Source: Minisyncoccota bacterium (GTDB lineage: Bacteria; Patescibacteriota; Minisyncoccia; Phycocordibacterales; UBA9973). From it: a stretch of DNA of 64,000 bases. Positions 16,129 through 18,327 of the stretch are shown here, piece after piece. The stretch covers positions 316,692 through 380,691 of the forward strand of contig JAQULK010000001.1 of assembly GCA_028718635.1 (NCBI GenBank), in the 5' to 3' direction. The position numbers and the translations under genes were made by a program. Under the pieces are notes generated by a model. It was not told the origin of the DNA, did not search any database, and saw only the letters and a list, made by a program, of their open reading frames with translations. Each line of letters begins with the position of its first letter. Position 1 is the stretch's first letter.

Positions 16129-18327
16129 ATGCGACTTAAAACACTTCAATTGAATGGTTTTAAATCTTTTGCTCAAAAGACTATTTTGGAGTTCAACACC
16201 CCCATTGTTTCGATCGTGGGTCCTAATGGATCAGGAAAATCAAACATAGTAGAGGCTATCCGTTTTGTTTTAGGGGAACAATCCATGAAATCAATGCGCG
16301 GGAAAGGAGGGGGAGATCTAGTTTTTAAGGGATCAAAGAAATTAGCAAAAGGAGCGCGGGCTTCTGTCACTATTTATTTTGATAATACGGATAAAGTTTT
16401 TAAACTTTCAAATGACGGAAGAGAAGATATAAATTTAAACTACGATGTTATTTCAATTTCTCGCGAAGTCTTTGCAGATGGATTGAATAAATATATTTTA
16501 AACGGCACAGAAGTCAGGTTGAAAGATATTCACAACCTTCTCGCCTCGGTGAATATAGGTTCTTCCGGGCATCACATCATCTCCCAAGGCGAAGCCGATC
16601 GTATTTTAAATGCCAACGCTCGAGAAAAAAGAGAAATGGTAGAAGATGCGCTTGGACTCAAAATTTATCAATACAAAATAAAAGAAAGCGAACGAAAGCT
16701 GGAGCGAACAAATGAAAATATGAAGGAAGTAGTTCTCTTGCGCAGAGAAAATGCTCCGCATCTCAACTTCTTAAAGAAGCAGGTTGAAAAATTTGAAAAG
16801 ACCAAAGAAATGCAGGCAGACTTGGGAGTTCTTTATCGGGAATATTTAAAAAGAGAGAGTGTTTATTTAGAACAAGAGAAAAACAAATTGTCACTTGAAA
16901 GAAATAAAATTTCAAATGAGCTTAAGAGTGTGGATGAAAAAATTTCTATCATAGAAGATAATGACCCCTTCCGTCATTCTGACACCTCCCCCTTAATAAG
17001 GGGGAGGTTGGGTGGGGGTAAAATAGAAGAATTACGAGCGGTAGAGCAGAAAATGAATTCTCTCCGTTCTACCAAAGGTGAACTAGAACGCAAACTTGGC
17101 CGAATAGAAGGGATGCTTGAATCCATCGAAAATAGAGCAAAATCCTCGCAAATTTCAGGTAAATGTCCCTTGTGTGGAAATGAAATCAAGAATGCAGAAG
17201 AAGAACAAATAAAAAAAAGGCATGATATAGAAAAAGAACTAGCAGATTTAAAAAAATCACAGCTTGATATTCTCTCTGAGATACAAAAAATAGCCTCAGA
17301 AGAAAAAGAAGGGATGGTATCGGTAGAAACATTGAAACAAGCAATAAATAAAGAGATGGAAGCCTTACGCGACCTGGAGCGTGAAAAGTTTACCTGGAAA
17401 GTCAGGCACCAAGAATTGTCTTCTGCCCTAGAACTTGTGGCTATAAAAGAAGGGAGTTTAAGGAGCCGTAAGGAAGGATTTGAAAATGAGATAAAAGAAG
17501 GTACTGCGCTTCTCGGCAGGGAAGAGCTGTCTTACGAAAATTTTAAAATCGAGGAAAATGAAACCGAAATCATCCAGGAAGATTTAAAGAGAAAAATAGA
17601 ACGCATAAAAATAAAATTAGAAGACGCCGGGCTCGGCAACGGAGCGGAGCTAATGAAAGAATTTAAAGAAGTAACGGAGCGAGACCAATTTTTAATGAAG
17701 GAAATGGAAGATTTGGAAAAAAGTATTGAGTCCTTGCAAAAACTTATTTTAGATTTGAAAGAAAAAATCGATATAGAATTTAAAGAAGGCGTTAAAAAAA
17801 TAAACGTAGAATTCCAAGAATTTTTTTCTTTGATGTTTGGTGGCGGACACGGATCGCTTTCTGTGGTTGAGATAAAAAGAAACTGGCGGGAAAAGGTCGG
17901 ACCTTTAGAGAGCCCAAGGTCCGACCTTGAGGAGCCAGAAGATGAGTTTGAAGAAGAAGAGGCTGTCGTCGAAAAAGGAATAGAGATAAATGTTTCTTTG
18001 CCTAATAAAAAAGTAAAAGAAATTAACGCTTTTTCCGGAGGAGAAAGATCTTTGACATCTATCGCTCTGCTTTTCGCTATGTCGCAAGTAAATCCGCCGC
18101 CATTTTTAGTGCTGGACGAGACGGACGCGGCGCTTGATGAAGCAAATTCCCGCAAATACGGAGATATGTTGGAGAAACTTTCAAAACATTCACAGCTTGT
18201 CGTCGTCACCCACAACCGAGAGACGATGTCTCGCGCCGGAGTCCTCTACGGCATCACTATAGGCTCCGACGAAGCGTCTAAAGTCCTCTCGGTAAAATTC
18301 GAAGAGGCGACCCAGATCGCAAAGTAA
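16129..18327 (+). CDS. Short SMC-family ATPase (Walker A N-terminus, coiled coil, C-terminal ABC signature LSGGERSLTSIALLFA and D-loop) containing an in-frame palindromic insertion
   Basis: GPNGSGKSN; SGGE...LVLDETDAALD. Confidence 0.8.
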   Translation: MRLKTLQLNGFKSFAQKTILEFNTPIVSIVGPNGSGKSNIVEAIRFVLGEQSMKSMRGKGGGDLVFKGSKKLAKGARASVTIYFDNTDKVFKLSNDGREDINLNYDVISISREVFADGLNKYILNGTEVRLKDIHNLLASVNIGSSGHHIISQGEADRILNANAREKREMVEDALGLKIYQYKIKESERKLERTNENMKEVVLLRRENAPHLNFLKKQVEKFEKTKEMQADLGVLYREYLKRESVYLEQEKNKLSLERNKISNELKSVDEKISIIEDNDPFRHSDTSPLIRGRLGGGKIEELRAVEQKMNSLRSTKGELERKLGRIEGMLESIENRAKSSQISGKCPLCGNEIKNAEEEQIKKRHDIEKELADLKKSQLDILSEIQKIASEEKEGMVSVETLKQAINKEMEALRDLEREKFTWKVRHQELSSALELVAIKEGSLRSRKEGFENEIKEGTALLGREELSYENFKIEENETEIIQEDLKRKIERIKIKLEDAGLGNGAELMKEFKEVTERDQFLMKEMEDLEKSIESLQKLILDLKEKIDIEFKEGVKKINVEFQEFFSLMFGGGHGSLSVVEIKRNWREKVGPLESPRSDLEEPEDEFEEEEAVVEKGIEINVSLPNKKVKEINAFSGGERSLTSIALLFAMSQVNPPPFLVLDETDAALDEANSRKYGDMLEKLSKHSQLVVVTHNRETMSRAGVLYGITIGSDEASKVLSVKFEEATQIAK

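Follow-up and report, generated by a model that had tools for sequence, protein, structure and literature searches.

A peptide shared by an SMC-like protein and DNA primase attributed to a small BoxC/PIT-type repeat in a Minisyncoccota genome

Why two unrelated genes of one bacterium should encode the same 12-residue peptide is the question raised by a 64,000-nucleotide stretch of contig JAQULK010000001.1 (positions 316,692 to 380,691; assembly GCA_028718635.1) from a Minisyncoccota bacterium, which we refer to throughout as the window. The peptide, TSPLIRGRLGGG, is encoded at 16982-17019 in an SMC-like open reading frame (ORF) and again at 32756-32793 in the gene for DNA primase, DnaG. An initial annotation had reported this identity, traced it to near-identical DNA and held that homology between an SMC ATPase and a primase could not explain it. 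Reexamination of the two genes bore out all three statements. Both stretches read exactly as described (...DNDPFRHSDTSPLIRGRLGGGKIEELR... in the SMC-like ORF and ...KTPSAVGTSPLIRGRLGGGLYDRF... in DnaG, with ...VGTSPLIRGRLGGGLY... as the insert-spanning stretch), and the DNA of the two elements is 93% identical across 40 nt, with about 20 nt more of weaker similarity on the 5' side. The identity comes from copies of one repeated DNA element that share a reading frame, and most orthologs of the two proteins do not have the segment. The explanation that we consider probable is that the peptide is a by-product of translation, as judged from intact frames, through a small dispersed repeat of the BoxC/PIT/TM type that spreads without an enzyme of its own. 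The two host genes are as follows.

16129-18327, plus strand: SMC-like ORF, 732 aa, with Pfam SMC_N at residues 3-715
32200-34053, plus strand: DNA primase DnaG, with the Pfam domains DnaG zinc ribbon, DNAG_N and Toprim

Six copies of a triplex-type repeat

Repeat and composition scans placed the SMC-like and DnaG copies in a family of six within the window. Four of these lie in frame and in sense within genes (PheT, SMC-like, RNase R and DnaG), and the remaining two are intergenic. The 23-nt hairpin core was found at two sites of the window only, those in the SMC-like ORF and DnaG, with an expectation of zero from 100 dinucleotide-preserving shuffles. The six copies, termed e1 to e6, are listed below.

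e1, 5947-6031, plus strand: composite copy in PheT (Phe-tRNA synthetase beta chain), in which a triplex core at 5996-6031 (CCCCGCCT / AGGAGGGG / GGGGTGGT, one mismatch) is accompanied by two small hairpins and an outer strand (ACCACC..)
e2, 16964-17020, plus strand: full copy in the SMC-like ORF, encoding DPFRHSDTSPLIRGRLGGG; from 5' to 3', a C-rich strand ACCCCTTCC, a small hairpin GTCATTCTGAC, a pyrimidine arm CCTCCCCCTT, the loop AATA, a purine arm AAGGGGGAGG, TTG and a third strand GGTGGGGGT
e3, 22153-22194, minus strand: triplex motif alone in RNase R, with no 5' strand and no small hairpin, encoding LPPLLNKERGLGGEV
e4, 23919-23979, plus strand: full intergenic copy directly after the stop codon of rpsP (S16), with a three-way fold
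e5, 32739-32794, plus strand: full copy in DnaG, of the e2 subfamily, with the small hairpin GCCGTTGGC, encoding TPSAVGTSPLIRGRLGGG
e6, 45137-45196, minus strand: full copy in the spacer between mreC and tgt, oppositely oriented, with the G-rich strand GGGTGAGGTG

The minimal unit spans about 35 nt: a pyrimidine arm and its complementary purine arm, separated by a short loop, are followed after a second short loop by a G/T strand that is the mirror image of the purine arm. This third strand follows a simple code, G opposite G and T or A opposite A, which is that of a reverse-Hoogsteen, purine-motif triplex. In full copies a C-rich strand at the 5' end and a tiny, variable hairpin are added, which places the motif on both DNA strands. 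The element had initially been described as palindromic; the hairpin is indeed there, with perfect 10-bp stems in e2, e3, e4, e5 and e6, but the description left out the mirror-repeat third strand that marks a BoxC/PIT intrastrand-triplex motif.

We applied the published class II rule (G.G-C, T.A-T or A.A-T triads, a stem of at least 6-8, no more than one mismatch and a short second loop) to the window, and the scan returned five motifs with eight triads and 0-1 mismatch, compared with none in 20 block shuffles. With 8-nt stems the first loop measures 7 nt, slightly above the published limit of 6, and with the full 10-bp stem it measures 3-4 nt. All eight triads were found in e2 (16985-17020; fold z = -3.5), in e4 on each of the two strands, and in e5 (32759-32794), for which the opposite strand also qualifies at 32739-32781 (third domains GGTGGGGG on the top strand and GGAGGGGG on the bottom strand). 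The opposite strand qualifies likewise in e2, e4 and e6, the small hairpin acting as the second loop. The triads of e1 were counted by hand against the copy in the related locus L127, which had been scored by the triplex scan. A T/T mismatch in the outer "stem" of e5 is explained by the same rule, since the triad code allows it.

Folded as single strands, the full copies of about 60 nt form an outer stem, the tiny variable hairpin and the 10-bp hairpin at -32 to -40 kcal/mol; in e4, a 9-bp outer stem, a GGCC-TTT-GGCC hairpin and a 10-bp hairpin give -39.7 kcal/mol (z = -5.4). The composite e1 (91 nt) folds at -43 kcal/mol, and z-scores over the copies range from -3.0 to -6.2. This fold had also brought to mind a three-way-junction RNA or ribozyme. 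Two findings spoke against it: T/T mismatches, which the triplex rule treats as neutral, are tolerated in the outer "stem", and the element is found in both orientations. The covariance models of Rfam 15 gave nothing at gathering score in the window, the best permissive match being to an unrelated snoRNA on e4 (E = 0.03).

The pairing between third strand and purine arm was further assessed in 120 genome loci, taken from 240 loci that two collection scans had located and that were fetched around element copies. The third strand matches its own purine arm at 8/8 positions in 34-62% of copies in the three common subfamilies and in 10% of one small subfamily, whereas the fit to the arms of other subfamilies is about 0%; the diagonal exceeds 200 label permutations. 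These figures come from rule-based scans used in place of a covariance model, MAFFT having misregistered the outer strand of the copies of subfamily v4, and the TAAGG core of the collected copies is imposed by the search pattern.

The element can thus be assigned, by its sequence, to the class II intrastrand triplex motif, since every sequence feature that defines the class was found. These purine-motif repeats (Bergler 1992; Hoyne and Maher 2000; Holder et al., 2015, PMC4666352) were named BoxC first and PIT elements later, and appear in Holder et al. as class II intrastrand triplex motifs; they are also known as TM (TMECO). Like the element described here, they combine a pyrimidine arm, a purine arm and a mirroring G/T third strand in about 35 nt, have variable loops and constant stems, show no link to transposons, lie in locally variable surroundings and are abundant in cyanobacteria. 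The likeness extends to the sequence itself. The E. coli TMECO (CCCTCTCCC..GGGAGAGGG..GGGGTGAGGG) nearly matches e4, an E. coli copy reading CCCTCTCCC-TGT-GGGAGAGGG-CCG-GGGTGAGGG is almost the same as e4, and in subfamily v1 the third-strand core of e4, GGGTGAGG, is contained in the E. coli third strand GGGGTGAGGG (PMC4666352). Triplex formation has been demonstrated for the E. coli sequences, and Holder et al. tie the motif to local sequence instability, describe it as unlinked to mobile elements and cite earlier work in which such motifs block DNA polymerase in vitro.

The element also differs from the published motif. All 23 copies of E. coli MG1655 are intergenic (PMC4666352), a location that describes those copies and does not define the class, whereas four of the six window copies lie in frame in essential genes and 74 of 122 listed metagenomic copies lie in long open frames. 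Many copies here have the extra 5' strand and small hairpin that place the motif on both strands, and Paceibacterota, to which the window belongs, are not among the genomes named for the motif in the available portions of Holder et al. A degenerate long-hairpin pattern run against contigs of one genome per species returned, among the matches listed, Nostoc, Rivularia and other cyanobacteria, Ignavibacteria, Bacteroidota, Dehalococcoidia, several Patescibacteria classes, Planctomycetota and others; with unconstrained flanks, the listed matches show the same architecture in Cyanobacteria, Bacteroidota, Ignavibacteria, Dehalococcoidia, Patescibacteria and other groups.

Filled and empty sites, reading frames and constraint

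The absence of the segment from orthologous SMC and DnaG proteins had been named as a check, and it was borne out for both. About 105 of 120 SMC orthologs do not have the element, among them the six closest at 82-86% identity, and about 15 carry DPLRHSDTSPLLRGRMGGG at the same place; one carrier, P0195, is present on at least 24 contigs. The element sits in place of a variable loop of the coiled-coil region, which reads ..TEDGNLVQNSQK.. in relatives, and DNA of the empty site is available. In a neighbour-joining tree built without the insertion region, the carriers fall into at least six separate lineages and are thus polyphyletic.

Most of 24 aligned DnaG proteins (from 120 orthologs) read ..AGLIKKTEKGFYDRF.. 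at the site without the element, the closest relatives included, and DNA of the empty site is available in L122 and L124. The element is carried by the window and by P0019 (75% identity), and it stands in place of ACT GAA AAA GGT TTT (the turn ..TEKGF..), directly before the conserved YDRFRGR. P0004 and P0016 have a different double-hairpin relative in the same turn, and other orthologs have other short inserts there. In the alignment to the solved Aquifex primase 2au3 the insert opens a gap at exactly that site, and in the AlphaFold (AF2) model residues 182-199 have a predicted local distance difference test score (pLDDT) below 50 and are unstructured between two short strands. As the mean pLDDT of the model is low (63.5), it supports only the suggestion that the insert is unstructured.

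At 617 aa, the DnaG of the window exceeds the length of about 575 aa that most orthologs have, and it contains two further patchy inserts. The first, SDVGRPKFGRPTSD, is encoded by a perfect palindrome at 33680-33724 whose arms measure 22 nt, and P0002, P0004 and P0016 have a shorter form of it; the second, at residues 363-371 (RGYSQMGEA), is shared with P0047 and P0065; and the ortholog alignment contains more insert hot spots (NPEPEQARYGAG, ARLDPARQ, PSIGLTSSLQASSGQ). Other low-confidence segments of the AlphaFold model include two at further palindrome-encoded inserts.

The remaining copies behave in a similar manner. Those in RNase R and PheT also occupy variable loops: at the RNase R site the loci L125, L126 and L128 read KEIANNE or KEVGNDE, and the loop of L127 is occupied by a copy that belongs to a different subfamily, while e1 encodes LPPRPSGTPLQKGGEEFPPRLDKEGAGGG and takes the place of a variable linker of similar length. 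Intergenic e4 is missing from the same rpsP spacer in L126, L127 and L128. The initial annotation had pictured insertion of the same element in the same frame; repeat copies in frame were indeed found, but the insertions are not clean, as 5-8 residues of a variable loop are replaced by the element. The RNase R ORF (20829-22916, minus strand) contains three further GC-rich, hairpin-encoded inserts of non-triplex families that are missing in relatives (HIRQDLARRS, LGHSPTGEA and NPPAGRQG; insert sites 22806-22830, 21834-21864 and 20917-20940), and one of the RNase R inserts is the GTAG/CTAC-containing palindrome GCCTCGCCCGTAGGGCTATGGCCGAGGGC, which has a second site at 53342-53365.

The initial annotation had also suggested selection for a single stop-free frame. 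This proved incorrect, because two frames are open in this orientation: the SMC-like and DnaG copies use the SPLIRGR frame, and the RNase R and PheT copies use the second (LPPLLNKERGLGGE and PPRLDKEGAGGG, respectively), e3 belonging to the subfamily CCCTCTCC/GGAGAGGG/GGGTGAGG. A search of metagenome contigs with an exact pattern for the e2/e5 subfamily returned at least 122 copies. Among the matches listed, stop-free stretches of 120 codons or more enclose 74 (about 60%), of which 35 are sense and 39 are antisense, and the other 48 lie outside such stretches; the host ORFs form at least 45 unrelated clusters, and Pfam identified ten representatives as RNase H, KsgA, MnmA, MiaB-like, Fmt, TruB, RluA-like, MurB, RecR and TatD. 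The two open frames of this orientation and the two or three of the reverse are all used, yielding the peptides xSPLxRGRxGGG, xLPLxKGExGRGS, xPxPxSPLxRGR and PPPxLPLxKGE, and only rarely TPSxPPPYxGGG, and the only frame never used among these matches is the one that always contains TAA. The peptide appears to be a passenger filtered only by the lack of stop codons, because both orientations and every stop-free frame are used in dozens of unrelated genes. The in-frame behaviour extends beyond uncultured lineages, since a gene of a cultured cyanobacterium carries the motif: in a plasmid of Pseudanabaena galeata (L249; NZ_CP112875.1, 1440-1540), a coding sequence annotated in RefSeq as a DNA methyltransferase holds two triplex motifs in frame (...PSSPQPPSPKEGEGGAREFTPLSLNGRGAGGEG...), and one of the pair is almost the same as the BoxC sequence of E. 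coli.

Comparison of the SMC copies between species places any constraint on the DNA. When the window, L126 and L127 are compared, the DNA of the element shows 95-98% identity, as opposed to 65-75% for the 40 flanking codons and for the remainder of the gene, and codons for the same residue are identical inside the element in 16/16, 17/17 and 18/18 cases as compared with about 50% elsewhere. All of the differences between species in the SMC copies are nonsynonymous, with no synonymous change seen, and in the SMC and DnaG copies they fall in loops and junctions or are triad-neutral, such as T to A in the third strand. Because there is no synonymous change inside the element, either the copies are young or the structure of the DNA is maintained, and in neither case does the conservation lie in the peptide.

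Origin of the copies and related systems

The closest precedent for the in-frame behaviour is provided by the Rickettsia palindromic elements (RPE) (Ogata et al., 2000, 2002; PMC10969869), which are likewise palindromic repeats in frame in many unrelated housekeeping genes of a small AT-rich genome, patchy among orthologs and adding a peptide compatible with the host fold. They differ in being about 100-150 bp long, in forming Rickettsia-specific families and in following no triplex (mirror-repeat) rule. The element described here measures 35-87 nt and is common to several phyla, a distinction drawn from length and description, not from sequence comparison. In-frame insertion into unrelated genes, together with orthologs without the segment, was found here as for the RPE.

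A further parallel exists in the GC-rich hairpin clusters of AT-rich organelle genomes, namely the GC clusters of yeast mitochondria, the double-hairpin elements of Allomyces and the repetitive hairpin elements of sponges. These too are short GC-rich hairpins that spread in a reduced AT-rich genome without an encoded transposase, sometimes in coding regions, but their sequences are different, they have no third-strand rule and their hosts are organelles. REP/REPIN-RAYT systems and miniature inverted-repeat transposable elements (MITE) resemble the element in being short dispersed palindromic repeats.

The events that would produce such a distribution can be outlined as follows. The element would be copied and inserted on single-stranded DNA with no need for an element-encoded enzyme, the likely route being stalling of the replication fork at the folded motif followed by template switching or by recombinational capture at breaks. 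Fork stalling with template switching or capture is proposed because it would explain why target duplications are absent, why small stretches of the target are deleted and why certain loops are hot spots. All copies that bring a stop codon or frameshift, or that land outside a tolerant surface loop, would afterwards be eliminated by selection, and those that survive would be read by the ribosome as flexible loop extensions, rich in Pro, Gly and Arg, that have no function in themselves.

Several observations weigh against the view of the peptide as a by-product of an enzyme-free repeat. The means of spread is one that we infer, no copying event having been caught, and translation of the inserts is deduced from intact frames in single-copy essential genes. 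Triplex formation for these sequences is predicted from the sequence rule. The window represents 64 kb of a 672-kb genome (about 10%), and a transposase may lie elsewhere. The copies at orthologous sites have a common small hairpin (GTCATTCTGAC in SMC and GCCKTTGGC in DnaG) and common boundaries, which fits inheritance or lateral transfer of a filled allele better than repeated fresh insertion; both small-hairpin variants are found in other host genes of the metagenomes as well. Finally, the absence of synonymous change could mean that the structure is selected for a function and not merely tolerated.

This last point leads to the main rival, that the element is a selected nucleic-acid signal (for replication or transcription pausing, mRNA stabilization or protein binding) and the peptide a tolerated side effect, which we regard as unlikely. 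The complete conservation of synonymous sites, the confinement of differences to loops, junctions and triad-neutral positions, the conservation of the motif across phyla and the very stable folds of the full copies would all suit such a signal, as would e6, whose G-rich strand lies 6 nt upstream of the tgt ATG at 45201 (45187-45203) and may provide its ribosome-binding site. However, most orthologs in close relatives manage without the element, no theme is common to the host genes or positions, the two orientations are equally frequent, and tests published for E. coli found no promoter, terminator or regulatory role (PMC4666352). The third-strand rule is moreover that of a DNA triplex, and such triplexes do not form in RNA (PMC4666352), which argues against a function in mRNA. 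Movement in trans as a non-autonomous MITE- or REP-like transposon, for example by a Y1/HUH enzyme of the RAYT type acting on single-stranded hairpins, seems to us improbable. It would account for a dispersed family of near-identical repeats, Y1 transposases use hairpins and leave no target duplication, the window covers only about a tenth of the genome, and a Y1_Tnp gene lies 1.8 kb from dnaG in a sister genome. That gene, however, is flanked by unrelated hairpins (CTAGGTCNGACCTAG), and a tblastn search found no homolog of the L123 Y1 transposase in the 64-kb window; the copies do not carry the GTAG/CGTC tag, and no associated RAYT was found in the tenth of the genome covered. No target duplication or conserved flank was seen at the copies, and 75 of 109 copies are without an outer inverted repeat; clustering of ORFs in the 120 genome loci, which had been used for this check of shared neighbours, gave no recurrent neighbour gene, transposase or other, the only common families being kinases, ABC ATPases and TPR proteins. 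The E. coli motif is likewise described as unlinked to mobile elements in Holder et al. (PMC4666352). The Y1 locus itself (L123, 13050-14330), a 220-aa IS200/RAYT-like gene 1.8 kb downstream of dnaG with CTAGGTC-N-GACCTAG hairpins on either side, resembles a classical REP/RAYT arrangement that has nothing to do with the triplex motif.

Two other explanations concern the peptide and the assembly. The peptide might be a functional protein module, whether a conserved feature of a domain or a linear motif gained convergently. Its Pro/Gly/Arg-rich, surface-exposed character and the similar peptides across many proteins would suit this, and a conserved domain feature had been named at the outset as a possible refutation. 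We consider a functional module very unlikely: the segment is missing from most orthologs, the differences between SMC copies alter amino acids, the same DNA is read in four or five frames and orientations to give unrelated peptides, and the insert has no counterpart among the residues matched to solved primases and comes out as unstructured in the model. The other refutation named was an artefact of sequencing or assembly, for instance a chimera formed at the repeat; the metagenome-assembled source and the short, GC-rich repeat would lend themselves to it, but the same insert was recovered at the same site, with intact frames, in independent NCBI, ENA, JGI and Logan assemblies from different projects, and the flanks on both sides are collinear with orthologs, which leaves an artefact a negligible chance.

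A motif known since the 1990s, which has no accepted function and no known means of spread and was published as lying between genes, is here part of the open frames of a primase, an SMC-like ATPase, RNase R and a Phe-tRNA synthetase, and in related bacteria of those of RNase H, KsgA, MnmA, Fmt, MurB and RecR, among others. There are precedents for the class of repeat and, in the RPE, for the in-frame behaviour, whereas their combination seems new; the literature searched contained no report of triplex motifs translated inside genes or abundant in Paceibacterota, and a search for palindromes in the candidate phyla radiation and Parcubacteria returned nothing relevant. If the passenger explanation is correct, part of the length variation and of the low-complexity loops in candidate-phyla-radiation proteins would be derived from repeats, and the element would be a second, independent case of "selfish DNA in genes" of the Rickettsia type. 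For annotation and phylogeny, such peptides should not be taken as homology or as domains, and the natural pairs of filled and empty alleles may be used to work out the mechanism of insertion. A much broader proposition, which we put forward as speculative and doubtful, is that intrastrand-triplex motifs are self-propagating DNA across phyla, moving without an enzyme through their own single-strand structure and routinely rewriting surface loops of essential proteins in small AT-rich genomes, and that Paceibacterota, with filled and empty alleles spread over many sister species, would be the first system in which the 30-year-old question of the nature and movement of BoxC can be answered.

Other repeats and inserts in the window

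Several further repeats were observed outside the triplex family. At 13972-14052, adjoining the start of thrS, lies a long inverted repeat (ACCCCCACACCTAATA...TATTAGGTGTGGGGGT) whose interior is AT-rich and whose G-rich ends resemble the outer strands of the element; it fails the triplex rule. An intergenic family, CATCCCGTTAGAGGC..GACCGCG, occurs at 339-370, 14330-14365, 14427-14458, 47944-47971, 48045-48076, 49209-49236 and about 49300, often in inverted pairs that are spaced by about 100 nt and flank genes. A 126-nt intergenic sequence is present in three copies at 71-90% identity (3387-3512, 49348-49473 and 52792-52917) and has no match at Rfam gathering score. The tgt ORF downstream of e6 (45201-46598, 465 aa) contains a 45-nt GC-rich hairpin twice, at 46042-46086 and 46378-46422 (93% identity), so that an 11-residue peptide occurs twice, and a further GC-rich block at 45789-45942. 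The GyrB ORF (6980-10357, plus strand) encodes 1125 aa, compared with 696-699 aa in relatives, and contains an intein (Pfam Intein_splicing, residues ~498-893).

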